Virus record (IMG/VR): IMGVR_UViG_3300020050_012045
Coordinates: 64,001-128,000 of that record
DNA: 64,000 nt
DNA from: a virus
Taxonomy: Duplodnaviria > Caudoviricetes
Strand: one strand, 5' to 3'
In this document: positions 33,161 through 49,884 of the stretch, piece by piece
How the letters are laid out: every line of letters starts with the position of its first letter
How positions within the stretch are numbered: the stretch's first letter is position 1
Made by a program: the position numbers and the translations under genes
The notes under the pieces: generated by a model
Told to the model about the DNA's origin: nothing
Seen by the model: the letters and a program-made list of their open reading frames with translations, nothing else
Database searches by the model: none

Positions 33161-33173
33161 TTTCAGATGTAAG

Positions 33174-33202
33174 TTGACCTGTCGATTAACTTCCTGTACT
33201 GT
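33174..33202 (+). promoter_or_regulatory. sigma70-type promoter
   Basis: TTGACC-17-TACTGT, followed by AAGGAG RBS. Confidence 0.55.
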
Positions 33203-33218
33203 CACGCAAGGAGCTAAT

Positions 33219-33719
33219 ATGTTGCAATTCGTCAAATACTTTTTCAACAACGATGTCAAGCCGCACGTTATCGCAAACGAACTTGCCCAAGACATTGAAG
33301 ACGACATCTATGTCCGATACTTAGCCCTTGCCTATACCGAGCAGGAAGCTGAGGAGTTCTTCTTTGACCATTCTGGTTGTTGCTTGGCAGTGCGATCGTT
33401 GGAAACATTCAACATTGACGGGCTGTCTGTAGTATTTCCGTCCGACTACCTACTGATGGGATTGTCGGAAGTTCTTCAGGCTTCCCCTCGGTTCATTAAC
33501 GGTAAGTCGTATTTCAAGCTGTATTCTTCGATGGGGTGCTTGATTTTGACTCCAGAGCAGCATAAAAATCTGTGTTCCCAGATTCGTGCTGACCTGGACG
33601 GCATCATTGAACGTGGAACCATCGACCAGCAGAAGTTGATTTCTGGGTTGAACAGCCTGCGAAACCATGATAACTTTGTGGTTAGCAAGTCGGTCCCTGA
33701 ACAAAGCTTCGAGAACTGA
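33219..33719 (+). CDS. hypothetical protein
   Basis: AAGGAG RBS, ATG 33219. Confidence 0.7.
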   Translation: MLQFVKYFFNNDVKPHVIANELAQDIEDDIYVRYLALAYTEQEAEEFFFDHSGCCLAVRSLETFNIDGLSVVFPSDYLLMGLSEVLQASPRFINGKSYFKLYSSMGCLILTPEQHKNLCSQIRADLDGIIERGTIDQQKLISGLNSLRNHDNFVVSKSVPEQSFEN

Positions 33720-33727
33720 GGTCGTAA

Positions 33728-33960
33728 TGGGTCAGCCATCTACTTGGGCGCTAGAGAAAGCTCGTGAGAGCATCTATGTCAACGAGAACGAACCTGTTGA
33801 GGTTCATTGCTTTGGTAAAGTCTTCCTTTACGACAAGACAGCTAACGCTCTAAAAGCTTGCGATCAGATGGTGGTCTTGTTCGCTCAAGCGCTTGATGAC
33901 TTTCATTCGCAGATGCTGGTATTCTCAGTATGGACACCTAAAGTAGGAGACGAATCGTGA
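33728..33960 (+). CDS. hypothetical protein
   Basis: GAGG RBS before MGQPST; start position approximate. Confidence 0.55.
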
Positions 33961-34313
33961 CTAACCAACAAATTTTTGACACCGTGGCAGACCATCTTTT
34001 GAAACAGCGCAAGAAATCGCTCAAAGACGGACTCTGTGTTTACCGATCGGGCCACAAAGCTAGCAGTAGGGTTCGTTGCGCAATTGGATGTCTGATTAAG
34101 GATGAGTTTTACCACAAGCGTATTGAGGACAATACTCCAGATATTCCAAAAGTATTGAAGGCTTTGAAGGATTCGGGGATTGGTCGGATGACTCGCAATA
34201 AGATGGATTTACTTCACTCGCTTCAGAGAGTTCATGACTCTTACGAACCAAGAGAATGGGATGCACGTCTTCGGGGGTGTGCTGCCATATATGGGCTGAA
34301 GGTTAATTTCTGA
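33957..34313 (+). CDS. conserved phage hypothetical protein
   Basis: QQIFD.V..HLLKQ, CVYR, CAIGCLI and LQ.VHD motifs. Confidence 0.7.
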   Translation: MTNQQIFDTVADHLLKQRKKSLKDGLCVYRSGHKASSRVRCAIGCLIKDEFYHKRIEDNTPDIPKVLKALKDSGIGRMTRNKMDLLHSLQRVHDSYEPREWDARLRGCAAIYGLKVNF

Positions 34314-34315
34314 TC

Positions 34316-35227
34316 ATGACAGACTTCAAACCAATGAAAGCCTCCGTCTGCGAATCGTTCGATGACGTCAAATTTCCTGTCTTGGTTTCGCCAAAGCTTG
34401 ACGGTATCCGGTGTGTCATTGTCGATGGCGAAGCCAGATCGAATTCTCTGAAGTTGATTCAGAATAAGTTCATCCAAGAAACGCTCAACACTCTACATGT
34501 AGATTCATGTGGTGAGCTTAATGGTCTCGATGGCGAGCTGATGCTACAAAACCCCAAAGCAAGCTTTCAGGAAATTACCGGGGCTGTCATGAGGCAGACA
34601 GGTGAACCAGAGTTCGTATTTTACGTTTTTGACGATTTCACAAACCCTGACCTCTCATTCCTTCAAAGGGATGCCAATACCGCCACGAAGATACGTGAAC
34701 ACTTCAGCGGCTCGAAGTATGTCAAGCACCTTAAGCACGAGTTGGTTAGCAACCAGGTCGAGCTGGAGCGTCTTTATAGGGAGTATTTAGATCTTGGGTA
34801 CGAAGGAGCCATGATTCGCTCCTTAGATGGCCAATACAAGTTTGGCCGAAGCTCAGCTAAGCAGGGATGGCTATTAAAGCTGAAGCCTTTTGAAGATGCA
34901 GAAGCTGAAATCGTTGGTTTTGAAGAACGGGTGGAGAACACCAATGAGGCGTACACCAATGAGCTTGGCAGGACCGCAAGATCGTCTGCTAAGGCGGGGC
35001 TGGTACCGCAAGGAACCCTTGGAGCTTTCTTGTTGCGCCGTCCAGACGGCGTTGAGTTTAGCTGTGGCTCAGGGTTGAATGACCAGCTTCGAGATGAGTA
35101 TTGGAGTAAGAAAGAGCAGATGTTGGGTCAGATTGTAAAATACAAGTTCCAGAAAATCGGGTCTGACGTGAAGCCGAGACTGCCTATCTTTCTAGGAATT
35201 CGACATGTGGATGATTTTAGTCGTTGA
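34316..35227 (+). CDS. ATP-dependent DNA ligase
   Basis: PKLDGIR (motif I), LDGEL, FYVFD, YEGAM, LLKLK and RLP.F.GIR. Confidence 0.95.
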   Translation: MTDFKPMKASVCESFDDVKFPVLVSPKLDGIRCVIVDGEARSNSLKLIQNKFIQETLNTLHVDSCGELNGLDGELMLQNPKASFQEITGAVMRQTGEPEFVFYVFDDFTNPDLSFLQRDANTATKIREHFSGSKYVKHLKHELVSNQVELERLYREYLDLGYEGAMIRSLDGQYKFGRSSAKQGWLLKLKPFEDAEAEIVGFEERVENTNEAYTNELGRTARSSAKAGLVPQGTLGAFLLRRPDGVEFSCGSGLNDQLRDEYWSKKEQMLGQIVKYKFQKIGSDVKPRLPIFLGIRHVDDFSR

Positions 35228-35251
35228 CTTTTAATTCAGTTCTGATATTCT
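35224..35251 (+). promoter_or_regulatory. sigma70-type promoter (leaderless)
   Basis: TTGACT-16-TATTCT; ATG 6 nt downstream. Confidence 0.65.
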
Positions 35252-35257
35252 TGTCTC

Positions 35258-35506
35258 ATGAACAACGAATACAAATCCCAAGCAGAGTTCCAAACCGCAA
35301 TGGACGCAGCCTTCCAAAAGGTCATGATTCCTGGCCAGCACTGGAAGGACCGTATCTGCAAGATGGTGGAAGCTCAACCATCTGAAGTTGATCAGATTGT
35401 TAAGGCGATTGAGTTTTTTACTGGAACCAAGGCAACCGTTGAGCGCCTGGACGTTTGCATCTACCGGATTCGCGCTGCTGGCTACTGGGCCGGCCCTTGC
35501 GCTTAA
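35258..35506 (+). CDS. conserved phage hypothetical protein
   Basis: HWKD.I...AIEFFTG...RAAGYWAG. Confidence 0.7.
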   Translation: MNNEYKSQAEFQTAMDAAFQKVMIPGQHWKDRICKMVEAQPSEVDQIVKAIEFFTGTKATVERLDVCIYRIRAAGYWAGPCA

Positions 35507-37215
35507 TCAACATTAGGTAAGCGACTACTGGCAACCCCGCCGCTCTGGCTCATCACCATCCCCGAACGAACTGACCGCCAACGAGCTGGCTTTTTCTTGC
35601 CTGTTGCTTGGTCACGTACGGCGGTCTTGATCTTCTTCTTATGGACAGCCCCGTTGGCTCCTGTCCCTACGCCCGCCAGTGGCTCAGGAAAAGACAGCTT
35701 CTTTTCTAGCGACGCCATCTTCCTGCCGTCTGGACCGTCAGTCACGTTAGCTACAGTTGCTAGGTGTTCCCAGGCTTTACCAGCGTTTGGCGACATCTTA
35801 GTGTCTGAGTAAATCTTGCCGTGGTGCTGGATTGCCCCCAAGTACAACGCCTTGCCGTAGCCATGCCCTTTATAGTCTGGGTGAACAGCAATCGATTCGA
35901 CCGAAGGGATGCCGTCATCTTGCAACGCCATATGAAGTTGTGCTATGTGGGGCTTGCGTGGGTCAGCTGAGCGTGATAGGGTGTGTGAATGAATCTGGCC
36001 CTGAGCACCTTCAAACGTGTGATGGAAGAAACCGTTGCCGATGGGCTTGGCATTGGTGTGGTCAAGGTAGTTAAACTGTTCCGCCAGATTAGCATATCCC
36101 TGGTGAGAGCCAAGCTTATTACCGTCTTCCTGGCTCATGTCGGTCTTGAACAGCTGTTCACTCTTTTTAATGGACTCTGATTCCTGGTTAGCAGCTTGCT
36201 TGATCTCGGACATCTGCTTAGCCATCGCTACCATGGCTTGAGAGATATGACGGATTGTGTCGTAAATCTCTGGAGACGCCTGCTTTAGTTCCTCGATCTT
36301 AGCCGAGTGCTCTTTAAGAAGCTTGATTCCGGCCATGATAACTTCTGTCGGGTCTTCTTGCTGTTGGGCGAGCTGACCGTGGGCGTCTGGGTGTTCAGCC
36401 TTATTTAGGCCAGCCTGGTCATCATCATCATGTTTATTCAAAGGTCGAGACTTGAACCTACCTAGATCATTAGCTAAGGTCTTTTTTTCAACAAAACTCT
36501 CTAATCCGCCAAAGGCGGTCTCCGTGTGTTTGAATGGCTTTTGTGGAGTCGTCCAATAATCCGTGTGACCACGCCCAATGATTCGGGCGTTTATTGGTGT
36601 TTTAGCGCCGCCAGTCAAGAGGTGTGCCGCTAAACGGTGATGCCCATCGGTAAGCAGGTGTCGTCCATCTTCTAGCTGATGAAGCTCTATTGGTTTACCG
36701 CTTGAAAATGAGCCCTTACCAAAAACGTTGTTATCGTGGGCTGCCATCATAGACTCTCTGCTACAGAGAATATCTTTTGGTAAAAAGCTAACTACTGGCG
36801 TCTCGTCGTGTTCAGCCTTAGCCAACGGATCTTCCTCCTCTTCTTCTGGAAGGTCCATGTCGTCATGATACAGGCTGATTTTGTCGCCGTGGTACAGCCC
36901 GTACTCGCACGCTGACTTGGCATGAGGCGCTTCCACGCCGACACCGAAGCAGAACTCCATCTGCGAGCAGGATGAGATGAACTCACACAACTGGTCCAGG
37001 TCTACCAGGTGTTCAGCTTCAACTTCAAACACACCCATGGTGCAGGCGTTAAGGATTTCCTTGCCGTGGTGGGTTTCAATCCAAGAGCTGATAGCTTTGT
37101 TAACTGAGTCTAGGGCGTAGTTCAGCTCGTACAGTTTGACCTCTTGCCCGGAATCGTAAGCTGAGTTTAGCTCGAACTCAAAGTCCTTGGTTCCCCATTG
37201 AATGTAGGTCAACAT
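35503..37215 (-). CDS. multidomain protein: degenerate mCpol-like, ParB/Srx-like and GNAT domains
   Basis: FGVG..A..A...Y...G.KISLY; PIELHQLEDGRHLLTDGHHRLAA; IAVHPDYKGHGYGKALY. Confidence 0.75.
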   Translation of the reverse strand: MLTYIQWGTKDFEFELNSAYDSGQEVKLYELNYALDSVNKAISSWIETHHGKEILNACTMGVFEVEAEHLVDLDQLCEFISSCSQMEFCFGVGVEAPHAKSACEYGLYHGDKISLYHDDMDLPEEEEEDPLAKAEHDETPVVSFLPKDILCSRESMMAAHDNNVFGKGSFSSGKPIELHQLEDGRHLLTDGHHRLAAHLLTGGAKTPINARIIGRGHTDYWTTPQKPFKHTETAFGGLESFVEKKTLANDLGRFKSRPLNKHDDDDQAGLNKAEHPDAHGQLAQQQEDPTEVIMAGIKLLKEHSAKIEELKQASPEIYDTIRHISQAMVAMAKQMSEIKQAANQESESIKKSEQLFKTDMSQEDGNKLGSHQGYANLAEQFNYLDHTNAKPIGNGFFHHTFEGAQGQIHSHTLSRSADPRKPHIAQLHMALQDDGIPSVESIAVHPDYKGHGYGKALYLGAIQHHGKIYSDTKMSPNAGKAWEHLATVANVTDGPDGRKMASLEKKLSFPEPLAGVGTGANGAVHKKKIKTAVRDQATGKKKPARWRSVRSGMVMSQSGGVASSRLPNVD

Positions 37216-37448
37216 TAGTTCAGCTCGTCAGGTGAGACATCTTCGTCAGAGTCTTCGGGGAGGTCGCCCATCTGCTCAACTACCTCTTCAAGGAGTCCAG
37301 CAAGAAATAAAGACTTCTTGTATTCGTCGTCTTCAGCTGGAGTTAGAGTGCCTTTTTCGTACAGTTCGATCGCTCGCTTCTGGTACTGATTAGACCATGC
37401 GACGCACTCGGCTTCAGAGATTACAAAACTTGCCATTGGTTTGATCAT
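37215..37448 (-). CDS. small acidic protein
   Basis: Coupled ORF. Confidence 0.6.
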   Translation of the reverse strand: MIKPMASFVISEAECVAWSNQYQKRAIELYEKGTLTPAEDDEYKKSLFLAGLLEEVVEQMGDLPEDSDEDVSPDELN

Positions 37449-37777
37449 AACAGGATATCCGCTGGGTGGTGGGTGAAGTGGAGTGGCAACTCTGACTTGA
37501 CCAAAAGCTTAAGGTTGGGAGAGCCATAGTTTGCCTGCTTACCAATAGCCGACTGGTGGGCTTCGTACATGAAGCGATGACGTGCCGATTCCTTGGGTTG
37601 TCCCATTTTTTGGAATTCAACAGCTAAATGATGGTGGTGTGCGGACGCTAGCTCGTGTTGGCGGCGCTTGTACTGCTGGTAAGCCTGGGTGTGCCCATGG
37701 GTTTGGGCGGCTAGGTCGAGATGTTGGGCATCAGCAGGATCAGAGATCGTCTGATTCCGCCACTGTGGCTTGTCCAT
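37445..37777 (-). CDS. His/Gln-rich helical protein
   Basis: GAGGAG RBS; LVKS motif. Confidence 0.65.
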   Translation of the reverse strand: MDKPQWRNQTISDPADAQHLDLAAQTHGHTQAYQQYKRRQHELASAHHHHLAVEFQKMGQPKESARHRFMYEAHQSAIGKQANYGSPNLKLLVKSELPLHFTHHPADILL

Positions 37778-38534
37778 TAACTAGCTCCTCGACCAACGTG
37801 ACCAAATCAGAGTCACCAGTCAAAGTGTACGTTTGTTTGTCTGGAGATACTTGGATTTGGTGGTCAGCCTTAAGAAGCTTCGAGGTGCAGACGCAGCCGT
37901 CAAAAGTACCCCAACGCTTGTGAAGCTGGGGAGAGCCGCAAGTTTTGCATACCTTGGACAGCTCTGACTTGTTGAACGTCTTAGATGCTGCAACCATTCC
38001 GGCAACCATTGGAAGCTTAACCTTCCGAGCCTTGCCAGTAATCTGGCCTTTGTCTGGGGGCTGTGGACCGTTCTGTTGCATCGGCGCTCGTGGAGCTGCG
38101 AACTTACCAGGAGCGTCAGTCTTCTGGAGTGATTGCAGCCAGGCGTTAGTTTTGTGTTTTACCAACAAATCCAATGACTTAGACAGCTTGCCGATGTCTG
38201 ATTGGCTGACCTTGGAGTCAACCGATGAAGTCTCCCCTAGGTTGACCAGAAGGATGGCTGTCATCTTAATGAGGTCTTGGGGCTCGGAGGTCAGGGTGTA
38301 GTCACCTGATTCAACTGACAGCTTGGATTCGGACTTGGACAGGCTGATTTGCCCCTGAATACCAGGGATTTCGCCTTGGTATTCACTGTTCTGCGCGGTC
38401 TCAAGGAACGTCAGGACGGCCTTCGGCAGCAAAGCGTTAGCTAGCTCCGGATAAGCCGTGGCCGCCTTGGACAGCACCTGAAAACCGTCAGGGCCCAGGA
38501 TGGCAAGCAGGAATGTGTTAGCCTGTTGATTCAT
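37740..38534 (-). CDS. probable internal head protein
   Basis: LSKS twice, LQKT, FNKS and LLKA motifs; CxxC..CxC; start re-called to MNQQ. Confidence 0.65.
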   Translation of the reverse strand: MNQQANTFLLAILGPDGFQVLSKAATAYPELANALLPKAVLTFLETAQNSEYQGEIPGIQGQISLSKSESKLSVESGDYTLTSEPQDLIKMTAILLVNLGETSSVDSKVSQSDIGKLSKSLDLLVKHKTNAWLQSLQKTDAPGKFAAPRAPMQQNGPQPPDKGQITGKARKVKLPMVAGMVAASKTFNKSELSKVCKTCGSPQLHKRWGTFDGCVCTSKLLKADHQIQVSPDKQTYTLTGDSDLVTLVEELVNGQATVAESDDL

Positions 38535-38541
38535 TCGTTCC

Positions 38542-38823
38542 CTAAAGATTGTTAGGTGGTTCTGGAACGATATTGCCGTCTTTGTCGACCCAGACAAGTT
38601 TGCCGTCGCGCATAGTGGGTACGGGTCGGCCTTGATCGTGATGTTGCTTTACGGCGGCTGAGGCAGCATCTTTGAAGGCTTGTTCCTCCTTGAGGAGTTC
38701 TTCAGACTTCAGGATAGGCGACTTAGGCCGGTTGAATGACGGCATGTTCTCCAGATGGTCGTCTGGAGTAAGGGTGATACGGATTACTTTACGTGGTTTG
38801 GTAGGAATCATGATTTCTCCCAT
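38542..38823 (-). CDS. small protein with ILKS motif and antitoxin-like C-terminus
   Basis: AAVKQHHDQGRPVPTMRDGKLVWV. Confidence 0.6.
   Translation of the reverse strand: MGEIMIPTKPRKVIRITLTPDDHLENMPSFNRPKSPILKSEELLKEEQAFKDAASAAVKQHHDQGRPVPTMRDGKLVWVDKDGNIVPEPPNNL
38544..38551 (-). promoter_or_regulatory. putative late promoter CAATCTTT
   Basis: 9 nt before ATG 38534. Confidence 0.6.
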
Positions 38824-41774
38824 ACTTCTGAATCATCGCCTGCTGTGTCTGGATCTAATTCCGTTCCCTTTGTTGGTGCATCAAAGTCAGACAGCTCGTT
38901 GGCCAGCATGTCTATCTCAGCCTTATCATACACCGGCCCCATGTCTGGAGCCGTTGGTTTGAAAAAGTGACCAATACCCGAGTAGCTTTGTTTTGGCACT
39001 GGAAATCCATGTTTCTCCACTAGGTATTTGTCATGCGGCTCAAAGGGGTTAGTAGTTGGTTTAGTGTTATAGTAACTCAAGGTATGCTGAATGTCTTCTT
39101 TAGGTATCGTCAAAAACGGCTGCTTGTGCTGAAAAATTAGCTCATGCTCATGTGGGTGTATGTGATCTTGTGTTTCGGACACTTTATGGACGCCAGAATG
39201 TAACAGGTCTTCCACTGGCATCCACTTTCTCATCATGACAGAAGCATTGTTTTGACCACGAACGTAACGCTCAGAAAAGCTTTTTGCGATACTCTGCTTG
39301 GTCGTCCACGAGCTAAACTGAGCATTGGGAATCTGGACGTCATCCGCTCCTTGATCCAAAGCGGTCTTGATTTTATGTCCGTATTCACCACCGACACCAC
39401 GATACACTAAAATATGGGGTTTGCCATCGATATGTTTGATTGCAGCTCTTGGATCTTTCAGAAGCGCGGATTGAACGTCCTGAGCATGGAGGGCTATGCC
39501 CTTGTGAATGCCTGGGTATACACTTGAGCGCCCCCTATCTCCTCTGAAGCCGGTCAGTGTCACATCATCGTCATTGCCATTGTGATACTTCTGAACAGTT
39601 GCAAAATGATCAGCCTTAACTGATTGTTCGTAATCATTCCAGAACTTATGGACTCTTTCCTTGATTAGAGATGGATGGGAATGTAACCTCTCTAACAGCT
39701 CTTGGTGTCTCTCTGTCTTGTGCTGATTGTAGGGATATCTATCGAGCACGTAAACAATCTGGGAGATCATCCTAGGGTTGTCGAAATGACTATTCAGATC
39801 CTGTCGGTCTGGGTCGATCGATAGCTGATTGGCGATCATGTCAGCAGGCTGAGTTCCTGACAAGGACGACACAGCTTGGGCAATTTGCTCAGAGTTGAGA
39901 CGCACCCCTAGTTCTGCATTACTTCCAATTTGAGACAAAGCAAATCCCCCAATCGCTGGATGATTGGCCAATTCATGAGCGATTACTTTTTGCTTTTGAG
40001 AGTCCTGCACCATACGATGAAGACCAAGCACTATATTTGAGTCCCACATCGGGTTTTGCTTCCACAAAGCGTGGTAGAGTTTAGCTCGATCTTGCGGTCC
40101 AACGTTTGCCTCAAGCAGTGCATGTGTCGGAATTCCGTTACCGCTAGCGACCGCCGCATCTAGCGTTCTGTGGAATTCCTCGGGGGTCACAGTGGAAGCT
40201 AGATGTGGCGGTAAAAACATAGCTCGCCCTGGAGAACTCATAGCCCACTGTTTGAACTTTTCACCCAGCCTAGGCTTCGTGCTAATATCGGGATCTTTTA
40301 GAGACTCACCATCCCCTTGCAAAAAATCCATCACGGTATTGGTGCTTAAGTGCGGCTGAGCCGTGTCAGAAGTGAAGCTGTTCTCGAAAAAGTTTACGAG
40401 ACCATCTTCAGATGCAAGCCTCATCTCATGGCCGATGTCTCTTTCCAAGTAATTAGAGATCTTCTCGAAACTTGGGAATTTTTCAGCCGCCTCAGAAAAT
40501 CTACTTAGAGAGATGTCGGCAAAAACCCGTCTCTTCAGGGGGTTGTCGCTATTAAGGACTTTGCTGATTGATGAATGAATCCCCCCTTGATTCCAGATCG
40601 CCTCAATTGGTGCTTCTTTTAGAAACTTTTTCAACTGTCCTGCCGACATCGCCTTGATCATCCCATCTGGCGGCGGTGCAGGAACGCCGTATGGATTCTT
40701 ATTATTCTTGACCTCTGAGAGATACAGATCTTGCTGCCTTTGGACGTCATCAGACAGTGGATTATGTTCATTGAGATCGATCTCGTGCTGCCTCTGCTTC
40801 TGTCTCTTCTGTTCAGCCTCATGCTCAGCAAGCTCTTGTTCGTCCATCAGAAACCAAGGCTCGTCATCTTCTGCCTTAACCAAGCTCTCATTAGGCTTGA
40901 CCCACAGCTTCAGCATCAGACCAATCGAGTTCTTGGCGTTCTTCAGGGTGTCAAACCGTCGCTTGAACGGTTCGACATCGATCCCATACTCTCTCAAGAT
41001 CTGGAAAACCCTAGTCTCGTCAATCGAGTTCAGCCAGTTCAGGAACTGAGTCTCTTGAACAGCTGATGGTTTAGCTAGATATCGTAACTTAGCCTCAGGA
41101 GGAAGGGTGTTAAAACCCTTGGGAGCGTCCGACCGCAAGTAGTACGGGATGAAGGTCTTGGTGTCGCCACCTGGATTGAAGCCATCACCCGCGAACGCCC
41201 CACCGTGGTCAATCAGTTTGACGTCTTCGGTCTCTGGGTCAATCAGAATGTTATTTGAGTGACGGTCAGTGTTCCCAAGAACGTAGTCAAGGAATGACCA
41301 TTGCCACATTTGGCCACTGTCTTGGTAGTCCTTAAAGATATCAATGACGCCCTGTTCGCCAGTTGGCTTCTTTTGTAGGAACGGAATGTTCTTGTAGCCT
41401 GTGTCGGCCAGTTCGATTGCGGCGGTCTCGTGGCCGTCCAGGAAGACAACTGTTGCTTTGGCGAACTGGTCACCATCCCCAACTAGTGACGCGATCTCAG
41501 AGAACGCCGCTTCGCGCTTGGACTTAGAGACAGGTAGGTCGTTAACCCCAGCAGCTGGTGATTGTTTCGAGACTTCTGGCTTAAGGAGCCATGCTCGTTC
41601 GTTTTCGGGATCCAGCGCAATCGCCGCCCCGTTGGAATACTTACCGGCCAAATGGATATCAAACACGAGGTGCTTAGCGTAAGCTTGCTGAATAGCCTCG
41701 GCGGTCCCCTTGTCTTTGGCGAACAATGGCTGGACGTCACGTGGAATGACGGAAGCTGAGAATTTAGCGTCCAT
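38808..41774 (-). CDS. multidomain protein: HipA/PI3-4K-like kinase, helical region and R-S-E ADP-ribosyltransferase
   Basis: LLKP, REAA, DYVLGNTDRHSNN and LIDHG; VYRG...FSSWTT...HEHELI. Confidence 0.8.
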   Translation of the reverse strand: MDAKFSASVIPRDVQPLFAKDKGTAEAIQQAYAKHLVFDIHLAGKYSNGAAIALDPENERAWLLKPEVSKQSPAAGVNDLPVSKSKREAAFSEIASLVGDGDQFAKATVVFLDGHETAAIELADTGYKNIPFLQKKPTGEQGVIDIFKDYQDSGQMWQWSFLDYVLGNTDRHSNNILIDPETEDVKLIDHGGAFAGDGFNPGGDTKTFIPYYLRSDAPKGFNTLPPEAKLRYLAKPSAVQETQFLNWLNSIDETRVFQILREYGIDVEPFKRRFDTLKNAKNSIGLMLKLWVKPNESLVKAEDDEPWFLMDEQELAEHEAEQKRQKQRQHEIDLNEHNPLSDDVQRQQDLYLSEVKNNKNPYGVPAPPPDGMIKAMSAGQLKKFLKEAPIEAIWNQGGIHSSISKVLNSDNPLKRRVFADISLSRFSEAAEKFPSFEKISNYLERDIGHEMRLASEDGLVNFFENSFTSDTAQPHLSTNTVMDFLQGDGESLKDPDISTKPRLGEKFKQWAMSSPGRAMFLPPHLASTVTPEEFHRTLDAAVASGNGIPTHALLEANVGPQDRAKLYHALWKQNPMWDSNIVLGLHRMVQDSQKQKVIAHELANHPAIGGFALSQIGSNAELGVRLNSEQIAQAVSSLSGTQPADMIANQLSIDPDRQDLNSHFDNPRMISQIVYVLDRYPYNQHKTERHQELLERLHSHPSLIKERVHKFWNDYEQSVKADHFATVQKYHNGNDDDVTLTGFRGDRGRSSVYPGIHKGIALHAQDVQSALLKDPRAAIKHIDGKPHILVYRGVGGEYGHKIKTALDQGADDVQIPNAQFSSWTTKQSIAKSFSERYVRGQNNASVMMRKWMPVEDLLHSGVHKVSETQDHIHPHEHELIFQHKQPFLTIPKEDIQHTLSYYNTKPTTNPFEPHDKYLVEKHGFPVPKQSYSGIGHFFKPTAPDMGPVYDKAEIDMLANELSDFDAPTKGTELDPDTAGDDSEVWEKS

Positions 41775-44311
41775 CAGAACATCCTCCGAAGTTGCTCAAT
41801 GTCATTAACCGTCTGTTGTGTCCGTGGTAGTCCATATGCAAAAATAGCCGCCCACACCGGATTGTCATCGTACCGCCACAGTGCTTCTCTGTAAAGGTCT
41901 TCATCAAACTGAGCGTGAGGCGCTAGGGTCTTAGCTGCACGGAACTCTGGCAAGGAGGAGAAATCCCCCATTGCGATCTTAACCGGGGTGTGGAACCTGT
42001 TCAGAATGTGCTGATAGTCTTGAGTGTACTGTTGCTGGTCGAATTTGTGAAGGTTATTGAGTTCGACCCAGTTCATGATCTCGGACTTTCCAAGATAGTT
42101 CTCTTGGGTTGGCACGCCTAGATACTTTTCATTATTCTGGGTCTGAGCAGACTCTGGACCATAACCACCCTTAACTGGGGTGTACCCCATTTTAGGGGGA
42201 GCGTCACCGTAAGTGTTCTGGTGGTGGTGAGTTAATGGTTCATTGGGATCTAGACCAGATAAATCAGGGTTTTTGTGCTTAGCTTCGGCAGTGAACATGA
42301 CGACTTTAAGCGGCTGGTGGTCAGTGACCTGCCCTGAGTCACGAAGATGTTGGTGGAACGCTTCGTGGAGCACAGTAGTTGGGGCCTTACCTTGCCACAA
42401 AATCTTTTTAATTTTGTCCCACTTTACCCCTTGGACGTGGCCGTTTGTCTGGGAGTAGTCGGACTGAAGCTCGTCAATGTGAGGGATGCCGTCGTCACCC
42501 TTAGTGTATCTGACCCAACCTATGCCGTCATCAGCCGCAACTGGGTGAACGCCAGACTTAACGATCTTGTCGTGTAAGTCTTTGTATTCGTGATAGACGC
42601 CTTCGGCAAGCATTTGGCGCTTTTGACCTGGCGTCATGTGAAGCCTGAAGACGTCCTGGTTGGGGTGCCCATCTTCGTCTTCTAGGTGGTCGTCATGTCT
42701 CTGGTGGGGTCCGTCATAGTATCCGTGAGAGTATTTGTACTGAAGCTTAGGGAGTGAATCGATTCTCTGGCTTAGCTTAGTGACGTCAGTGTTTCCCTTG
42801 CCATCGAACACGTGAGCGTGACCTTGGGTCCGAAGGTCGATTCCCAGATCCTTAAGCTGTTTCTCGTTGATTACCCCGTTGTTTTGTTTGGCATGCATTC
42901 TAGCCAAACGAAGACGATTGGACCCAATAGTGACACCAATGTGTGAACCGGAATTATCGACGTTTCTTAATCCGTTGATGATTGGATGGAAACCAACTGG
43001 GTACATCGCCTTAAGTTTTTCAAATTGTTGATCGTTAGCGACAGGCAGTAGTCGCTCTAGGAGTTTACCTCCGTCGCGATTATAGTAGTCAGGTGGAGAT
43101 TTCATGGTTGACATATAGTTCTCTATATGTCGCTCATCGATTGGCAGATGTAGAAGATCGTCAGGCTCCCTATCTCCCGTAAACAGCTTTAGTGAATGCT
43201 CTTTATCAAACTTCGGGTGGTCAGTCAGCCGGAAAGTATGGGTTGGATTCTCGTCCATCAGGCGATGGATATCTTGGGACTCAAGATGAGGCGACTGGGT
43301 AATCTGCCTCAGAATTTCTTCCTGTGCAAACTGATGAGTGGACAGAACCGGATCGTTACGCAACCGATCGTACACTTCCATGGTTTTGTTACGCGAAATT
43401 CTTCCCGCCGCTTGAGCCGCAACCCAGTCGTTACGTTGGGTCAGTTTATCCAAGTGTTGAGGCGTAGCATGTTTAGCGGCAGCTAGGAGCCCAGGGTGCT
43501 TGTCGACCATGTAGTCTTGGGACTCGGGCGACCACTTGACGTTTCTTGAAATCTCACCATTTAATTCTTCCAAAGCGTACGGTGTGGCATTTTGGGCAAA
43601 GAACTGCTTTTGCGCCTCTGGCGAGAAAACGTGCTCAAGACCAGGCGAACTTAAGTCGTTAAAAGCTAACCTAAGCTTCCTTGGTGGTGCAGCGGGATTC
43701 AACGCCGCTTGCTTGACCATGTCGCCAACAACTCGATGCACAACCTCTGGATGTTTCTCTGCAAACTCAGCTCTGCCTTCTGAGGTGAGGTTTTGGTTAA
43801 CAAACAAGTCGTAAGCGTTCTCTGGGGTTAGCTTGTGGGCGGCTTCTATCGGAGCACGCCCTTGGCCTGTCTTGACCAACTTACCGTACAGGTCGTTCAT
43901 GACCTCCGGGTCTTGAGCAAATGGATGCTCGAATACCTTGGTCACATTGATGGAATTTCGATCAGTTGAACTATTCACGATGTGATCAAACTGATCTTTT
44001 GACAGAGCGGGGTTATCAAGGGCGTCCGAGCTGAGGTTGAAGTAGTTTCGAGGGAAGTTATTTATGACAGCCTTGATCAAATGAGCATAAGCGGGGTTCT
44101 TGATTAGCTGTGACCTAGCGGTCTTAAACAGCTGCTGCTGATCACTGGACCGATAGTTAGGGTCTATCAGAGCATGAGCTAGCGAGTCGCTAATCTTGTG
44201 CGTCTTGATTTTTTCGGCGATTTTACGGGCTTTAGGTGATGGCCAGTCGTTCTCGTTTTGTTCAATGAGATACGCCTCTTCCTCAGGTGTCAGGCTCGGA
44301 ATGTCACTCAT
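41774..44311 (-). CDS. multidomain protein: helical repeats plus a GWVRY...IDELQSD polyvalent-type domain
   Basis: NPALS/HP helical repeats; IGWVRYT...HIDELQSD; LGKS boundary. Confidence 0.65.
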   Translation of the reverse strand: MSDIPSLTPEEEAYLIEQNENDWPSPKARKIAEKIKTHKISDSLAHALIDPNYRSSDQQQLFKTARSQLIKNPAYAHLIKAVINNFPRNYFNLSSDALDNPALSKDQFDHIVNSSTDRNSINVTKVFEHPFAQDPEVMNDLYGKLVKTGQGRAPIEAAHKLTPENAYDLFVNQNLTSEGRAEFAEKHPEVVHRVVGDMVKQAALNPAAPPRKLRLAFNDLSSPGLEHVFSPEAQKQFFAQNATPYALEELNGEISRNVKWSPESQDYMVDKHPGLLAAAKHATPQHLDKLTQRNDWVAAQAAGRISRNKTMEVYDRLRNDPVLSTHQFAQEEILRQITQSPHLESQDIHRLMDENPTHTFRLTDHPKFDKEHSLKLFTGDREPDDLLHLPIDERHIENYMSTMKSPPDYYNRDGGKLLERLLPVANDQQFEKLKAMYPVGFHPIINGLRNVDNSGSHIGVTIGSNRLRLARMHAKQNNGVINEKQLKDLGIDLRTQGHAHVFDGKGNTDVTKLSQRIDSLPKLQYKYSHGYYDGPHQRHDDHLEDEDGHPNQDVFRLHMTPGQKRQMLAEGVYHEYKDLHDKIVKSGVHPVAADDGIGWVRYTKGDDGIPHIDELQSDYSQTNGHVQGVKWDKIKKILWQGKAPTTVLHEAFHQHLRDSGQVTDHQPLKVVMFTAEAKHKNPDLSGLDPNEPLTHHHQNTYGDAPPKMGYTPVKGGYGPESAQTQNNEKYLGVPTQENYLGKSEIMNWVELNNLHKFDQQQYTQDYQHILNRFHTPVKIAMGDFSSLPEFRAAKTLAPHAQFDEDLYREALWRYDDNPVWAAIFAYGLPRTQQTVNDIEQLRRMF

Positions 44312-47300
44312 TATTGCACCTTAGCCATCTGGGGCATCTTTGAGATAATGTCAGCTGCACGGTCGTTGACAACCCTACCGTAATGCTTATGGAAGTCCTG
44401 GATATACTTTTCTGACTCTGGGGTTAGTCCAGTTTCGATTTGTTTTCTGGCACCGTTCTCGCCCCAACGCCAACCAAGGGCGGAATGTCCAATGTTTCCA
44501 TTAAATACCGACTTCAGCCGATTCCACTCTTTGCCAGCAACAGTGTTGTACAGATGAGGGTTTGTCTGGAACTCTTTTAGGAACGCCGCCTGAACCTGTG
44601 GGTTCTTTTTCAGCTCCAACGGATGCTGTGACAACGGAGCGATGTTCGGGTAGATCTTCCGTAACGTTGGATCGTTGACGAAGTGCTCTAACCCGGTAGA
44701 TGGCTTCATCCCCAACGGGCCGTAAGCGGTTTCAAACTCGCCGCCAGAATGAGCGGCATGGCCCCACAACTTACCACCAGCGGATTCATTCCCGGCTAAT
44801 GCGACTAATTCAGGGTGTAACCCCTGCATGGTCCACGAACGCTTTGCTTCAAACTTGCCTGGAACATGAACTGTTTGGGCATCAGCAGACGTAGCCCCAA
44901 AGCCCTTAGTCTGGTCCATTTGGATTGGGTCTTTAGGCTGAGCCTGTACTGAACCTGACAAAATGGAGGCGGCTGCTAAACCCATTAGCTGATGCTTGAA
45001 AGACTTGCTAAGGGGTTCATTCACTACCACCCATTCTAGTAGCTGTTCAGTGGTCGGGGCAAACGATTTAGCTAGCTGTCCTGGCACGGAAATTGCTGCA
45101 CGGGTCGAGACTGGCTTGACGGCCTTCATGTACCGACATGCTGCGTCAAAGACGTTATGTGGGAGCTTGTCTTTAGCTAAACTAAGATATTGGTTACGAA
45201 AACCATATGAAGCGTACTTCCACGGAACGAGCTTAGGATCGTAAAGTAGAACATGATCAACATCTTCACCCAACCCGCGAACTATCTTGGCAGGAAGTGA
45301 AACCTTCTTATCTGGACAGTTAGCCAACGTCTCAAGGGCGTAAGATGACGGACCGTTAAGAAGAACGTGGTCAACGTCGAGCAAACCTTCACAAACAAGC
45401 TCAGCTAAAGCGTCGTCACCCATGTCGTGCCAGTCGGTCATTGACGACCGTTGGTGTTCTGGAGCGTTTCTCAAAGCTTCCTTGATGACGTTCAGGTTCT
45501 CGCCCTTTTGAACTTGATCAGCTTTTGGATGTTCCCATTCATCTCTTCTTCCCATTGGAAGTCCCGTGTGCTGCTCCAAAGCTCTTACAGCTAAATTTTT
45601 AGCCGATGGATGATCGAATGAGTGAAAATTACATCCACCTTTGTGATTAGCTAAGGCATACAGCTCTTTCTTGTTTGGGTGGACAAAACCCTCTATTCCC
45701 GCGATGTTCTCATCAGATCCTTTTAATTTAGTGTGAGCTATCATGCGGTTTCCGTATGACTTCACCTCTGTCTCGTACGGACTCTCTGGCTGAGCCAGCT
45801 GTTCATCAAGTGAACGACCATCTCCGCGAATAACCGATATTGGGGTTGGCTTAGGTCCGTTGTATTCAGCGTAATGCAAGTGCTTAGGTTCTGTGGCTAA
45901 TTTAACGGATAGTTCCGGATCTTGAGTAAGTTTCTGCCAAGTTTTGTGAGCGCCAAGAGAGACGTGGGTATCGGACGCCATTCGTCCATGCGTTTTGACC
46001 ATTTGCTTATACAGCAAGGTTCCGTATCCTTGACCTATAAGGTGGCGAGCTGTGGCCGTTTCACCATGCTGAACAACAGGGTGCTCATCGTTCCATGGGA
46101 GCCCTCTGTCTACATTGTATTGAGAAGCAGGGGTAGTGCCCGAAGCCGAACTGGCGAACCTCTCGCCAGCGAGCGGAGTTGGGCTGTTTGTTAATTCATG
46201 AAAGGTAGAGACATACCCCGATTGACCGACTGGCTGGTGATAAACATGATGATATATGCGACCGCCACCTAAGTCGGTGTTGGTGTCGTATGTTTCAACT
46301 TTATGCTGAGCTTCACTGCCGTAGATTTTATGGGGAGTCATACGTCGAGCAGTGTCTTCGCTAGTCAAGCCCACTTTCTTGAGATCTTCACCCTTAAGGA
46401 CGTACTCGTATGGAGCGAACCGAGAATCAAAGTCGCCTGGCTGCTTGTCGCCGACCGTAGATGCTTCGGGTTTGTAGTCCATTCCGTGCTTTTGAGACAA
46501 ATGTTGGTGAACAGCGGACGCAGCAGTTGAATGCTCGTCTCCCTTAACTCGGCCAATACCCAGATGCTTAGCATGAACAAGAAGCGCTTCGTAAGCGAGC
46601 TTGCCTAGCCCCTTGCCTCTGTGTGGGTTATCCACAGACGAGAACCGTACCCTAGCTACAGACGGTTTGAAATGGAGCATTCCAGAAACCATTCCGGCTT
46701 CCTTAGCTTTGTGCCAAATCTTGGCTCCAATACCGTGCTCTCCTGGATCGCCAAAGTCGCGGGTTTCGACAGTCATCCGATAACCGTCTTTGACCAGCTC
46801 AGGGGGCAACATATGCGTGTACGAGTGAACTGGACCCCAATGGGTTGAAGTCAGCTTCTTGCCCTTAGGGATATCCGACAGGGATTTAGATAGGTCTTCA
46901 GCTGGAGCTTCGTTATCTTCCCAGTTTTCCTCGTCAAAGGATTCAGGTTGAATGTCAATCCCAGTCTTGGTGACGGTTTCAAGCTTGTACTGAGACGCAT
47001 CGCTCAGATGTAACGCCTTCATTTGGGCGATTTTGTTGATTGCGTCACGACGTTGGTTGTTTGAGCCATCGTCATTGGTCGCTTGATCAGAGGAATCATA
47101 GGTTTCGACGTGCAGCCCCATGTTGCGAAGGAGTTGCTTAGTATGCTCAGACGCCGTATGTGGAACGACAGCACCCTTGAACTCATGAAGACCGACCGCT
47201 CGCTGAGGCTTAGCTTCAAAATACTCGGTTGGTAGGTTACGCAGACGATGAGCGAATTCTGCGATCTTGGCGACTTGGTGAGGCTGGAGGTCCAGGCCAG

Positions 47301-49032
47301 ACTCTTTAAGTTCGCGGCTTAAATACTTACCCTTTTTGTAAGACTCGCCCATCGCTTCCAAGACTGGAGACGAAGACAGGTCATTAGCGCTCAGGAAGTC
47401 TGTGAACTCATTGTCTAGTTGCTCGCACTGAGCCTTGAAGCTCTTGTTGTCAATTACCTTGTGACGATCCTTTTGGATGTCCTCGACCGAACGGAATTTC
47501 TTGGCCCCAATAGCTCTGGTAGATCCAAGGCCGTAGTTAAAGTTCTCGCCGCCACGCACTGGCTTCTTTGTGACTTCTTTAACGATATTGGACAGCGTAT
47601 ATGGAAGCTTACGATCCCTAGGGCCGTTGATGGTATCAACACGCTTAGGTATGTAGCGGTCACCAACCAGTTCCTTTTCTTTCGAGGCTTTCCAGTGGTC
47701 GAAGTCTTCTTTATGGGGCTCGATTAGCTTAGACACCTGTTCATTGTAGTGGTCAGGATCGTGTTCTGTTTCGCCAACCTTGTTCGCCTGAGTTACAATG
47801 CGATCCATTGCGCCATAGTTTAATTGACCATTATCAAAAAGATAATCGTACTCTGGCGCTCTTACCAATCTCTGAACGACTTCTTCATCTAGGTCAGTGC
47901 GGTTCCCAGCAAAATTGTGACTCTCGATAGCTTTTTTAACGGCATCTGACAAAGTTTTGTGCTCTGGTGAGCCAAACACTATGTTCCGGCTCAAAGCTGG
48001 GGTGCCGCGAAGCTGTTGAACATGAGGTGATACTACCCATTCATGTCTGTCGATCTTTTTGGGTCTGGTCTGAGTAGGGACTGCAATGCCCTTCTCTTTA
48101 AGAAAAAGAGACGAGAGGACTTTGTTAGGTGTATCGCCCACGTACCTAGGGTCCGTTAACTTGCCACTTGCTAACAGGTCAGTCTCTATACCCTGATCGG
48201 CACCGTTCTTGTCTACAAGCTTAGCGTGCTCTCTTAGGTCTCTTGCGAAGTTAGTCCACTTTTTCTCGTTGAGCGCGAACTTAGCCCGTGGATGTCTAGG
48301 CGAGTAAACATCTGCGTCAAATACGGGCACACCCTGTTTAGGGTCAACCAAGGTGTGGTCGCCAACCAGAGTAATCTCACCAAACGAAGACAAGGGGTGG
48401 TCTTTGTGAGCAATCGCAATCGATGGGGCGGCCAACCCACCAAGCTCGTGAGCATGATGAAGCCCAGCTTCGCTTAGGTTGTGGGTAACTATTAAGTTCT
48501 TCTCTGGTTCAGGCTTTGCTTTAGCCTTGACTGGTTTTGGGCCAGTTGGCTTAGCGGACAACCCAGCAACGAGCTGTGCATCTTCGGTCTTAATCAAGTC
48601 CAGGTATTCGATTGGCATCAACTGGAGCAGAACGTTGTGACCTTCTGGAATATGAAGGTTGTTGGCGATCTTAGCTGGAAGCCCATGCTTGATGTCAACG
48701 AACTTCAACGAGTCTTCAACGAACTCATCGTCCGGGTCGTTCTTGCATGATGGAACGTAGTCAGCTGGAGCTTTAACCTTGAACACATGGACAATCATCT
48801 CGCCAGACTTGATGTGCTTACAGCCAATGTACTGGCAGTCCTCTTCAGTCAGGTCGAGGTCACCCTCTTCTTTAGCTTCACGAATAGCGGCTTCAGTTGG
48901 GGACTCATCACCTTCCATAGAGCCGGCTATGGTCGTCCAGGAAGAGTTATCCTTGCGACGCCCCCACAACATAGCGCCGTCAGGGTTAAAGACGCCGAGG
49001 CAGACGACTTGTTTTGGTTGTGAGTTTTTCAT
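44311..49032 (-). CDS. giant polyvalent protein: Nudix, HNL..PSIA..YFEAK domain, two GNATs and SLT lytic transglycosylase
   Basis: Nudix box GSMEGDESPTEAAIREAKEEG; HRGKGLGKLAY; LIGQGYGTLLY; NES..AYGPLGMKPST..ALGWRWG. Confidence 0.85.
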   Translation of the reverse strand: MKNSQPKQVVCLGVFNPDGAMLWGRRKDNSSWTTIAGSMEGDESPTEAAIREAKEEGDLDLTEEDCQYIGCKHIKSGEMIVHVFKVKAPADYVPSCKNDPDDEFVEDSLKFVDIKHGLPAKIANNLHIPEGHNVLLQLMPIEYLDLIKTEDAQLVAGLSAKPTGPKPVKAKAKPEPEKNLIVTHNLSEAGLHHAHELGGLAAPSIAIAHKDHPLSSFGEITLVGDHTLVDPKQGVPVFDADVYSPRHPRAKFALNEKKWTNFARDLREHAKLVDKNGADQGIETDLLASGKLTDPRYVGDTPNKVLSSLFLKEKGIAVPTQTRPKKIDRHEWVVSPHVQQLRGTPALSRNIVFGSPEHKTLSDAVKKAIESHNFAGNRTDLDEEVVQRLVRAPEYDYLFDNGQLNYGAMDRIVTQANKVGETEHDPDHYNEQVSKLIEPHKEDFDHWKASKEKELVGDRYIPKRVDTINGPRDRKLPYTLSNIVKEVTKKPVRGGENFNYGLGSTRAIGAKKFRSVEDIQKDRHKVIDNKSFKAQCEQLDNEFTDFLSANDLSSSPVLEAMGESYKKGKYLSRELKESGLDLQPHQVAKIAEFAHRLRNLPTEYFEAKPQRAVGLHEFKGAVVPHTASEHTKQLLRNMGLHVETYDSSDQATNDDGSNNQRRDAINKIAQMKALHLSDASQYKLETVTKTGIDIQPESFDEENWEDNEAPAEDLSKSLSDIPKGKKLTSTHWGPVHSYTHMLPPELVKDGYRMTVETRDFGDPGEHGIGAKIWHKAKEAGMVSGMLHFKPSVARVRFSSVDNPHRGKGLGKLAYEALLVHAKHLGIGRVKGDEHSTAASAVHQHLSQKHGMDYKPEASTVGDKQPGDFDSRFAPYEYVLKGEDLKKVGLTSEDTARRMTPHKIYGSEAQHKVETYDTNTDLGGGRIYHHVYHQPVGQSGYVSTFHELTNSPTPLAGERFASSASGTTPASQYNVDRGLPWNDEHPVVQHGETATARHLIGQGYGTLLYKQMVKTHGRMASDTHVSLGAHKTWQKLTQDPELSVKLATEPKHLHYAEYNGPKPTPISVIRGDGRSLDEQLAQPESPYETEVKSYGNRMIAHTKLKGSDENIAGIEGFVHPNKKELYALANHKGGCNFHSFDHPSAKNLAVRALEQHTGLPMGRRDEWEHPKADQVQKGENLNVIKEALRNAPEHQRSSMTDWHDMGDDALAELVCEGLLDVDHVLLNGPSSYALETLANCPDKKVSLPAKIVRGLGEDVDHVLLYDPKLVPWKYASYGFRNQYLSLAKDKLPHNVFDAACRYMKAVKPVSTRAAISVPGQLAKSFAPTTEQLLEWVVVNEPLSKSFKHQLMGLAAASILSGSVQAQPKDPIQMDQTKGFGATSADAQTVHVPGKFEAKRSWTMQGLHPELVALAGNESAGGKLWGHAAHSGGEFETAYGPLGMKPSTGLEHFVNDPTLRKIYPNIAPLSQHPLELKKNPQVQAAFLKEFQTNPHLYNTVAGKEWNRLKSVFNGNIGHSALGWRWGENGARKQIETGLTPESEKYIQDFHKHYGRVVNDRAADIISKMPQMAKVQ

Positions 49033-49041
49033 ATAATATTA

Positions 49042-49884
49042 TTAAATGGTACTCATTGACCATTTTGTTCCGAACATCATTTTCAGCTTACCACGGATAG
49101 CGTCCAATCGCTTCTCAAGTTCAGCGATCTTCAACTGGAACCGCTGTGGGCCAGGATTTGATTGAGACTGTGACATCCCATCAATGCCCAACGAGTAGGA
49201 GCTGACTTGATACATGGCAGCAAGAGCGTTGCAGATGTCGATAGCGGCTTTACAGCCAATTGCTTGATTGACGACACGTGGAACCATACCGCCCGGAAAC
49301 CCAGCGGTGTAGGTAACTTTCCATGACTGGGGAGTGAACGGTTGGCGACGAATAATATCAATCAGAAGAGCACCAGTAGATGACGACGAATTCAAACCAG
49401 CCGAATAGACACTTGGACCAGAAGCCCAAATGTTAATCTGTCCACGAGAGTACATCCCGTCCTGAAGCCATTCTTTTGGTACTATCCATCCAACATCATT
49501 TCCATTGGGGGTTAATGCGACTTGTTCAACAGATAGAATCGGTTTATGTTGAAGCCGGAAATAGCCAAACTGAAGCATGTGGTTTTGATCATATGGCATC
49601 CGCTCAGATCTCTGAACAGGAAAGATGTCGATACCAAAATCAAGCTCAAGCGCAGCGATAGCATCCAAAATGTGCTCTTGGACAGTTTCATCGGTCATTC
49701 GATCAAACTGACCAGTTACCCGATTCTTAAGCGGGGCAACCAGGTCAATCCCAAGAAGGTACATCTGCTTGAGCTTTTCGACACTGATGACCGGCTGGAC
49801 TCGGCTCCACTCCTGGCCATCGATTGCATTTTCTGGGAAGACGCCATTGGGGTTTGGGCGGCTGTTGTTGCTGTAATCTGCCAT
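49042..49884 (-). CDS. head-tail adaptor / neck protein
   Basis: PILSVEQV, WKVTYTAGF and SYSLGIDGMSQS adaptor motifs. Confidence 0.75.
   Translation of the reverse strand: MADYSNNSRPNPNGVFPENAIDGQEWSRVQPVISVEKLKQMYLLGIDLVAPLKNRVTGQFDRMTDETVQEHILDAIAALELDFGIDIFPVQRSERMPYDQNHMLQFGYFRLQHKPILSVEQVALTPNGNDVGWIVPKEWLQDGMYSRGQINIWASGPSVYSAGLNSSSSTGALLIDIIRRQPFTPQSWKVTYTAGFPGGMVPRVVNQAIGCKAAIDICNALAAMYQVSSYSLGIDGMSQSQSNPGPQRFQLKIAELEKRLDAIRGKLKMMFGTKWSMSTI

Follow-up and report, generated by a model that had tools for sequence, protein, structure and literature searches.

The stretch of DNA analysed here (the window, 64,000 bp) is bases 64001-128000 of a complete 158,596-bp phage genome in IMG/VR (record IMGVR_UViG_3300020050_012045), which carries a 121-bp terminal repeat. 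The genome is that of an uncultured Mx1-like myophage, and its closest named relative is the contractile-tailed Myxococcus phage Mx1 (169.6 kb). As the initial annotation described, eight contiguous minus-strand open reading frames (ORFs) of 570, 77, 110, 285, 93, 988, 845, and 1573 amino acids (aa) fill positions 35503-49032 of the window; the larger products combine unrelated enzyme domains, and a short lysine motif recurs along them. The same Leu-x-Lys/Ser-Ala signal marks the maturation site of the major capsid protein (MCP) of this phage, so its head protease probably cuts these cargo proteins inside the capsid. The genes and their principal motif sites are listed below, with P0001, P0002, P0003, and P0004 denoting the 1573-aa, 845-aa, 988-aa, and 570-aa proteins and a slash marking the proposed cut.

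44311..49032, minus strand: P0001, 1573-aa polyvalent protein; module limits from homology blocks and relatives P0126-P0135
48586..48597, minus strand: L-I-K/T of P0001, residues 146-149, end of the NUDIX module
46882..46893, minus strand: L-S-K/S of P0001, residues 714-717, in an acidic linker ahead of the GNAT module
46390..46401, minus strand: V-L-K/G of P0001, residues 878-881, left joint of the swappable cassette
45502..45513, minus strand: V-Q-K/G of P0001, residues 1174-1177, right joint of the swappable cassette (VQK/S in P0126)
45001..45075, minus strand: L-A-K/S (residues 1320-1323) and L-S-K/S (1341-1344) of P0001, ahead of a hydrophobic segment and the SLT-like domain
41774..44311, minus strand: P0002, 845-aa protein; helical-repeat N-half, conserved domain, low-confidence linker, and C-terminal helical domain
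42083..42094, minus strand: L-G-K/S of P0002, residues 740-743, in a linker with a predicted local distance difference test score (pLDDT) below 50 between two better-modelled domains
38808..41774, minus strand: P0003, 988-aa protein; kinase module from residue 1 to about 290, middle part without assignment, ART-like C-terminus
38542..38823, minus strand: 93-aa ORF carrying I-L-K/S-E
37740..38597, minus strand: 285-aa protein with five L-x-K-[S/A] sites and a Cys-rich segment, counterpart of Mx1 WNM70337
37445..37777, minus strand: 110-aa protein with L-V-K/S-E near its C-terminus
37215..37448, minus strand: 77-aa acidic protein without the motif
35503..37215, minus strand: P0004, 570-aa protein; conserved core with two inserted cassettes, matched by 265 homologues as separate blocks
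36400..36816, minus strand: ParB-like cassette of P0004, flanked by L-A-K/A-E-H and L-N-K/A-E-H

P0001 is built from a NUDIX module (residues 1-148), a PBECR5 module (about 149-716), a GNAT module (717-880), a swappable cassette (881-1176), a module without assignment (1177-1343), and a hydrophobic segment followed by the SLT-like domain (1344-1573); Pfam recognizes NUDIX, PBECR5 (PF18814, E 9e-20), and GNAT. P0003 has a PI3/PI4-kinase-like domain (Pfam PI3_PI4_kinase) and carries the sites L-V-K/A (298-301) and M-I-K/A (372-375), and in relatives this kinase module either ends the protein or comes after an x-x-K/[A/G/S] site. The core of P0004 comprises an mCpol domain (1-132), a helix (273-351), and a basic tail (506-570), into which a ParB-like cassette (134-272) and a GNAT cassette (352 to about 500) are inserted. 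The mCpol assignment comes from 17 homologues that match PF18182 (best E 1.7e-11) in a Pfam scan of 140 homologue fragments, whose MAFFT alignment was badly misaligned and served as a list only, while the GNAT was found by Pfam. In a family of 280-1200-aa proteins, this mCpol domain (36817-37215, minus strand) is the conserved N-terminal part. The 285-aa protein is probably shorter, with its start at Met22; four sites are present in its counterpart in Mx1. The histidine content of the eight cargo proteins is 5.0%, compared with 1.8% for the remaining proteome.

Among the domains proposed in the initial annotation, NUDIX, kinase, and the GNATs of P0001 and P0004 were recovered by Pfam and mCpol through homologues, whereas the third GNAT was not; the ParB-like and SLT assignments are leads, and the ART-like C-terminus of P0003 corresponds to a sub-threshold DRAT match (E 0.03). 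Polyvalent proteins are known from phages and conjugative elements (Iyer, Burroughs, Anand, de Souza, Aravind 2017, PMC5512222). At least two unrelated enzyme or effector domains per polypeptide are found in P0001 (NUDIX, PBECR5, and GNAT) and P0004 (mCpol and GNAT, with the ParB-like cassette in addition), and P0003 contributes a kinase plus the ART-like part. Judged by their predicted domains, the products of the eight genes qualify as polyvalent proteins sensu Iyer et al. 2017 (PMC5512222). Domains characteristic of this class, such as PBECR, ART-PolyVal, LPD, and DdrB-ParB, are represented by PBECR5 in P0001 and, in homologues of the cargo proteins, by PF18760, PF18834, PF18857, PF18798, and PF18763.

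All motif instances listed in the initial annotation are present at the residues it gave. The broad pattern [LIVMFW]xK[SAGT] occurs 38 times in the eight genes against 22.4 +/- 4.5 in composition-preserving shuffles (P ~0.001), a density of 8.5 per 1000 aa compared with 4.9 in the remaining proteome; over half of the listed instances are thus expected by chance. The excess over shuffles is stronger for L-x-K-[S/A], with 14 copies against 4.4 in the eight genes (3-fold), and it extends to seven head genes (14 against 3.2, 4.5-fold) but not to the other 41,834 aa of the genome (33 against 30.7). When all genome copies are listed, those outside the eight genes cluster in the head module: the MCP has one (residues 10-13), the scaffold-like protein and the protease have four each, a 482-aa protein has two, and a 180-aa protein has one at its N-terminus. 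As controls, fifteen patterns were counted on four protein sets, including the reversed motif, motifs shifted by one or two residues, Arg, Glu, or Gln in place of Lys, and other first or last residues. None of them showed a comparable excess on these sets, and the sole other sizeable one, [IVM]xK[SA] in scaffolds (3.5-fold), is a variant of the L-x-K-[S/A] motif. From these counts, the effective motif is narrower than first proposed and reads as L (less often I, M, or V)-x-K/[S/A], commonly followed by E or D.

The same pattern is found beyond this genome. A megablast search of the 1573-aa gene against phage records gave no match, and a locus search with the MCP as a single sequence found no relatives; an MCP alignment was required, with which we fetched 80 IMG/VR loci around MCP homologues, and the MCP search gave at least 970 homologues among the 8000 candidates scored. 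In 34 relatives, the scaffold homologues contain 137 sites against 14.9 expected (9-fold), with the consensus L-x-K/[S/A]-[E/D]. Enrichment is 2.5-fold in protease homologues, 2.7-fold in homologues of the 1573-aa protein, and 3.3-fold in those of the 988-aa protein, and the cargo-protein homologues in relatives have 46 sites against 16.3 expected (z 7.4). The adaptor-like protein (12 sites against 11.4 expected), a 137-aa protein, ThyA, and deoxynucleoside monophosphate (dNMP) kinase stay at about 1-fold. In Mx1, the cargo genes have 12 sites against 2.9 and the head module 8 against 2.3, with 11 against 8.0 in 50 kb elsewhere.

The portal-to-MCP part of the structural module, which is on the minus strand and common to Mx1 (tblastn of Mx1 proteins), sits just past the right end of the window (stretch L003). 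Its order is portal with an intein, 746-aa “prohead protease” protein, 482-aa protein, GGDEF cyclase, 180-aa protein, 257-aa scaffold-like protein, and MCP. The initial annotation suggested looking for the motif at the MCP N-terminus, and L-V-K/A is found there at residues 10-13, with hydrophobic-x-K-[SATG] kept in 120 of the 120 best MCP homologues. The protein is a distant homologue of Herelleviridae MCPs, matching those of SP82G and phage 812 and SPO1 gp6.1 in tblastn, BLASTP, and phmmer searches. In the phmmer alignment to the phage 812 MCP (5lii, 463 aa), E-S-L-V-K-A-W-Q-A-G pairs with E-D-V-V-K-S-F-Q-T-G, and K12/A13 aligns with K24/S25. The 9row chain of the same 812 MCP (439 residues) is offset by exactly 24 and thus begins at Ser25, right after V-V-K. 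Together, the alignment and this chain start identify K12/A13 as the homologue of the phage 812 maturation cut. Our literature search found no open paper stating the cut site of phage 812 or A511.

The first ~170 residues of the 746-aa protein were modelled by AlphaFold2 with a pLDDT of 85, and the top Foldseek matches are herpesvirus assemblins and T4 gp21; His41 and Ser126 are invariant. By this model, the N-terminal domain is an assemblin-fold prohead protease. Pfam and PDB sequence searches, with a single sequence and with a profile, gave no match, and a fold search and hhalign were required: a profile of 36 protease domains matches SP82G sp82g_82 (253 aa) with a probability of 98.6% (E 8e-16). 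The latter gene is two genes upstream of the MCP in the SPO1-like phage SP82G, and we read it as the SP82G head protease. Moreover, the SP82G protein at the scaffold position has eleven [LIVM]-x-K-S sites. The homology of MCP and prohead protease to their SPO1-/phage K-type counterparts is homology of a module, not membership of a virus family. Going by these comparisons, the Leu-x-Lys code belongs to the Herelleviridae/SPO1-type protease lineage, and its spread into enzyme polyproteins is particular to the Mx1-like clade.

In the protease ORF (L003:7300-9540, minus strand; genome 135300-137540), the catalytic domain is directly followed by a duplicate of the MCP N-terminus with its cut site. 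The copy reads L-E-K/A-W-M-A-G ... L-T-Q-G-A-A-T-Q-K-E-D, compared with L-V-K/A-W-Q-A-G ... L-R-Q-G-A-A-T-Q-I-E-D in the MCP, and most of 36 relatives retain it; a shorter copy follows the SP82G protease (D-K/S-L-E-A-G versus N-K/A-L-E-A-G in its MCP). With this copy standing in for a capsid N-arm, the protease may be anchored in the shell. A search for such capsid-arm mimics returned the MCP and the protease and otherwise scattered single matches, one of them in P0003. Among relatives, the length of the protease ORF varies between 318 and 1590 aa because the protease is fused to 100-1400 aa of variable C-terminal cargo, and this fusion may be how cargo is targeted there. Two observations concern other genes of the same module. 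The portal gene (1129 aa; L003:10567-13956, minus strand) is split by an intein with a LAGLIDADG endonuclease (Pfam), and the separate GGDEF protein (L003:5227-5865, minus strand), between protease and scaffold, is a second nucleotide-cyclase-type domain in the virion module, whose Mx1 counterpart is annotated as a nucleotide cyclase.

The initial annotation placed the motif at domain boundaries of the enzyme polyproteins, and cassette insertions, deletions, and swaps do fall at the sites. The counterpart of P0001 residues 881-1176 is missing from P0127 and replaced by another cassette in P0126, with the joints of both lying within the shared K-G/S-E residues of V-L-K/G-E and V-Q-K/G-E. P0145, a relative 90% identical to P0004, lacks exactly the ParB-like cassette between its two flanking sites, and across the 265 homologues of P0004 a conserved core has cassettes inserted at sites. 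Eighteen homology-block ends cluster 2 aa from the LIK/T that closes the NUDIX module of P0001, where P0135 has LHK/A. The LAK/S and LSK/S ahead of the SLT-like domain are both conserved in P0126 and P0127. Blocks common to Mx1 and other distant proteins start or stop at sites in both partners: a Mx1 homology block begins at P0001 residue 711 and, in Mx1, directly after MKK/A, and another Mx1 block opens with the LSK/S ahead of the SLT-like domain. Overall, 29 of 101 homology-block ends lie at most 12 aa from a site, against 13.2 expected. In P0002, all five homologues keep K742-S743, whereas the two residues ahead of it differ between them (L/I/M, then G/A/Y).

Sequence comparison thus shows that the motif is specific, that the MCP site and the protease have homologues in the Herelleviridae system, and that cassette joints coincide with the motif. 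We consider it likely, with a probability of roughly 0.65, that the eight genes encode polyvalent cargo proteins that are cut inside the capsid by the phage's own prohead protease. The recognition site of this protease would be the sequence that parts the cassettes, L (or I/M/V)-x-K followed by S or A, sometimes G or T, and often next by E or D. In the proposed mechanism, the cargo precursors would co-assemble into the prohead, where the protease would take off the 12-residue MCP propeptide, dismantle the scaffold, trim itself, and cut the polyproteins after each motif Lys. This would free a Nudix hydrolase, a PBECR5 RNase-like module, acetyltransferases, a kinase, ART-like and ParB-like modules, an mCpol cyclase, and an SLT-like lysin, which would exit the capsid along with the DNA. 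Since each cassette has its own cut site, cassettes could be inserted, deleted, or swapped without harm to their neighbours. From the initial annotation, the idea of a hydrophobic-x-K-small code that also serves in Herelleviridae capsid maturation and that punctuates the enzyme polyproteins is retained, but in a narrower form, with about half of the instances attributable to chance.

Several points weigh against this reading. By chance alone, one would expect about 4-5 core sites (14 observed) and 22 broad ones (38 observed), and K/G, used at the strongest cassette joints of P0001, is not itself enriched. Several of the listed instances fall inside domain cores or lack conservation (MVKT 1011, IAKS 829, IVKS 583, LIKA 78). 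In a composition-based test against other lysines, the surroundings of the sites are not significantly more disorder-prone on the TOP-IDP scale (P 0.065 for the broad and 0.49 for the core motif) or acidic by counts of acidic residues (P 0.38). We therefore do not claim a general placement in disordered or acidic linkers: the frequent acidic neighbourhood noted in the initial annotation holds for several sites but does not reach significance overall. A search of the cargo proteins found no shared N-terminal peptide, capsid-targeting sequence, or MCP-arm mimic, and the assignment of the 9row start to the mature N-terminus rests on the deposited chain sequence. Packaging, cleavage, and ejection of the cargo are steps that we infer. 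A literature search found no virion proteome for Mx1, whose paper is a genome announcement.

The motif might instead be a conserved linker or recombination joint, with the cargo remaining uncleaved as full-length multi-enzyme proteins, like P1 DarB or the N4 virion RNA polymerase. Cassette indels at the motif fit this explanation, as does the remark of Iyer et al. (PMC5512222) that some polyvalent proteins travel unprocessed. Moreover, both K/A-E-H sites flanking the ParB-like cassette are encoded by an identical 12-nt direct repeat, AAGGCTGAACAC, so DNA microhomology alone could explain that deletion, a further point against processing. However, a joint would leave unexplained why the same tetrapeptide stands at the MCP maturation site and why scaffolds are enriched 9-fold. 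In addition, only imperfect DNA identity links the two joints of P0001, and K742/S743 of P0002 stays while the adjoining residues and codons drift. We regard this explanation as improbable, and cleavage by the prohead protease as the better account of the motif.

Alternatively, the polyproteins could be cut by a peptidase embedded in the cargo itself, with the prohead protease uninvolved. The candidate is the HExxH block of P0002, where HIDELQSD and HEAFHQHLRD (residues 612-659; 42335-42478, minus strand) are invariant in five homologues down to 43% identity. The domain that holds them is probably catalytic, and Iyer et al. (PMC5512222) ascribe the processing of polyvalent proteins to MPTase domains. 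Yet the P0002 domain has no Pfam match to any peptidase family even at E 1, and one HExxH is about what chance gives in His-rich proteins (an estimated ~0.75 expected). The AlphaFold2 model of P0002, from a five-sequence alignment, is poor (pLDDT 57, with residues 665-767 below 50). Foldseek and VIA-align found only weak alpha-solenoid matches to it, over residues 57-451, and gave no fold match for the HExxH domain, which they barely covered. Moreover, the motif fits the specificity expected of the head protease. We give this alternative little credence. That the enrichment is a functionless artefact of composition or secondary structure in Lys/Leu/Ser/Ala-rich helical proteins is very improbable: the cargo proteins are Lys-rich (7.6% versus 5.9%) and many instances lie in predicted helices or domain cores, but composition-keeping shuffles still give 14 versus 4.4, the reversed, shifted, Arg, Glu, and Gln variants are flat, the result recurs in independent relatives and Mx1, and the sites coincide with module limits.

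Building on cleavage by the prohead protease, a bolder idea, which we hold to be possible but doubtful, is that the cut site acts as a universal plug: any enzyme flanked by L-x-K/S/A could enter a head-loaded carrier, be freed, and be delivered, with the same coding repeat serving as the recombination joint. The carrier could be the protease itself, the mCpol-core protein, or the giant polyprotein, and Mx1-like phage populations would exchange anti-defence enzymes module by module. The final cut in P0001 would in addition expose a signal-peptide-like N-terminus and send the SLT lysin to the periplasm after ejection. As read from the translation, P0001 residues 1344-1366 (44935-45003, minus strand), right after L-S-K/S, have a basic start, a hydrophobic core, and V-Q-A/Q, and this segment ahead of the SLT-like domain resembles a signal peptide in its sequence.

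The cargo genes resemble the polyvalent proteins of Iyer et al. (PMC5512222) in being large late-gene strings of unrelated conflict enzymes, with PBECR5, Nudix, GNAT, ART, ParB-like, and lysozyme/SLT domains among them, in their fast variation by domain shuffling, and in their predicted delivery with the DNA. They differ in that processing is ascribed there to an embedded zincin (MPTase), whereas here we find no recognisable MPTase and a capsid-maturation site between modules. The likeness to the T4 internal proteins IPI-III and Alt with gp21 lies in host-modifying proteins that are packaged in the head and injected, as is predicted for the cargo here, in an assemblin-fold prohead protease that cuts them, and in a short motif that is also used on the capsid and scaffold proteins. 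In T4, the prohead protease gp21 matures the injected head proteins IPI-III and the ADP-ribosyltransferase Alt, cutting after Glu (L/I-x-E), with one N-terminal targeting peptide per protein and single-enzyme cargo. In contrast, the proposed cut here is after Lys, with many internal sites in multi-enzyme precursors, and we found no targeting peptide.

In the phiKZ-like giant phage SPN3US, many head proteins, ejected ones among them, are matured by the prohead protease, and gp245 is an ejection/inner-body protein with the motif A-X-E (PMC10052503). As proposed here, several motif copies can be cut within one SPN3US precursor, but the cuts identified there, except self-cleavage of the protease, yield N-terminal propeptides and no series of enzymes is freed; the motif and the phage lineage also differ (PMC10052503). 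Herelleviridae of the 812/K, A511, and SPO1 type share a homologous MCP and protease, an aligned Lys cut, a densely punctuated scaffold, and a protease with a mimic of the MCP N-terminus. In SP82G, however, the stretch of 6 kb on either side of the MCP has no large enzyme polyproteins beside the head genes, whereas in the Mx1-like clade the code has spread into cargo genes inserted between adaptor and neck genes. Loading of the P1 Dar proteins is ordered and depends on partner proteins, and we know of no cleavage code that they share with the capsid protein. DarA, DarB, and DdrB are anti-defence proteins carried in the capsid, as is predicted for the cargo here; proteolytic processing affects some of them, and some are polyvalent (PMC5512222).

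Around the cargo block, the gene order agrees with its placement in the initial annotation between an adaptor and the neck and tail genes, which is right in outline by synteny with Mx1. After the MCP come an insert of nucleotide-metabolism genes, ThyA, dNMP kinase, 137-aa and 280-aa structural proteins, the eight cargo genes, three neck-region genes, sheath, and tube. The flanking features are as follows.

49042..49884, minus strand: 280-aa adaptor-like structural protein, counterpart of Mx1 WNM70332, directly upstream of the cargo block
26654..29488, minus strand: tail sheath, located downstream of both the cargo block and the neck genes; full-length identity to the Mx1 sheath is 44%

The match of the 280-aa protein to the phage-812-type adaptor 8q01 is weak (E 0.017), and its homologues in relatives show no motif excess. 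A plus-strand insert (33093-35506), which includes an ATP-dependent DNA ligase (34316-35227), parts the cargo block from the neck genes, and Mx1 has none at the equivalent position. The extended motif also occurs in two other small proteins of the structural module: a 211-aa neck-region protein (29490-30125, minus strand) has three [LV]-K-K/A-E sites, and a 146-aa protein (genome 55277-55717, minus strand) has E-L-S-K/S-E-A, identical in its Mx1 counterpart WNM70335. Both may be further substrates of the protease.

It is already known that polyvalent proteins are widespread in phages and that prohead proteases mature injected proteins in T4 and phiKZ-like phages. What is new here is a Lys-specific code of the Herelleviridae type that delimits many swappable enzyme cassettes in polyproteins, together with protease-cargo fusions in the same clade. 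If the proposed processing is true, a large, mostly uncultured clade of 150-180 kb phages releases a changeable set of host-modifying enzymes via its capsid-maturation protease, and both known systems are linked by a simple Lys-specific code that was inherited along with its Herelleviridae-type head. This would explain how polyvalent proteins are disassembled when no peptidase domain can be recognised in them. It would also give a sequence rule that predicts virion cargo and mature enzyme boundaries in metagenomic phages, and offer a natural model for packing foreign proteins into capsids. The cultured phage Mx1 shows the same motif pattern, making the question directly testable there.

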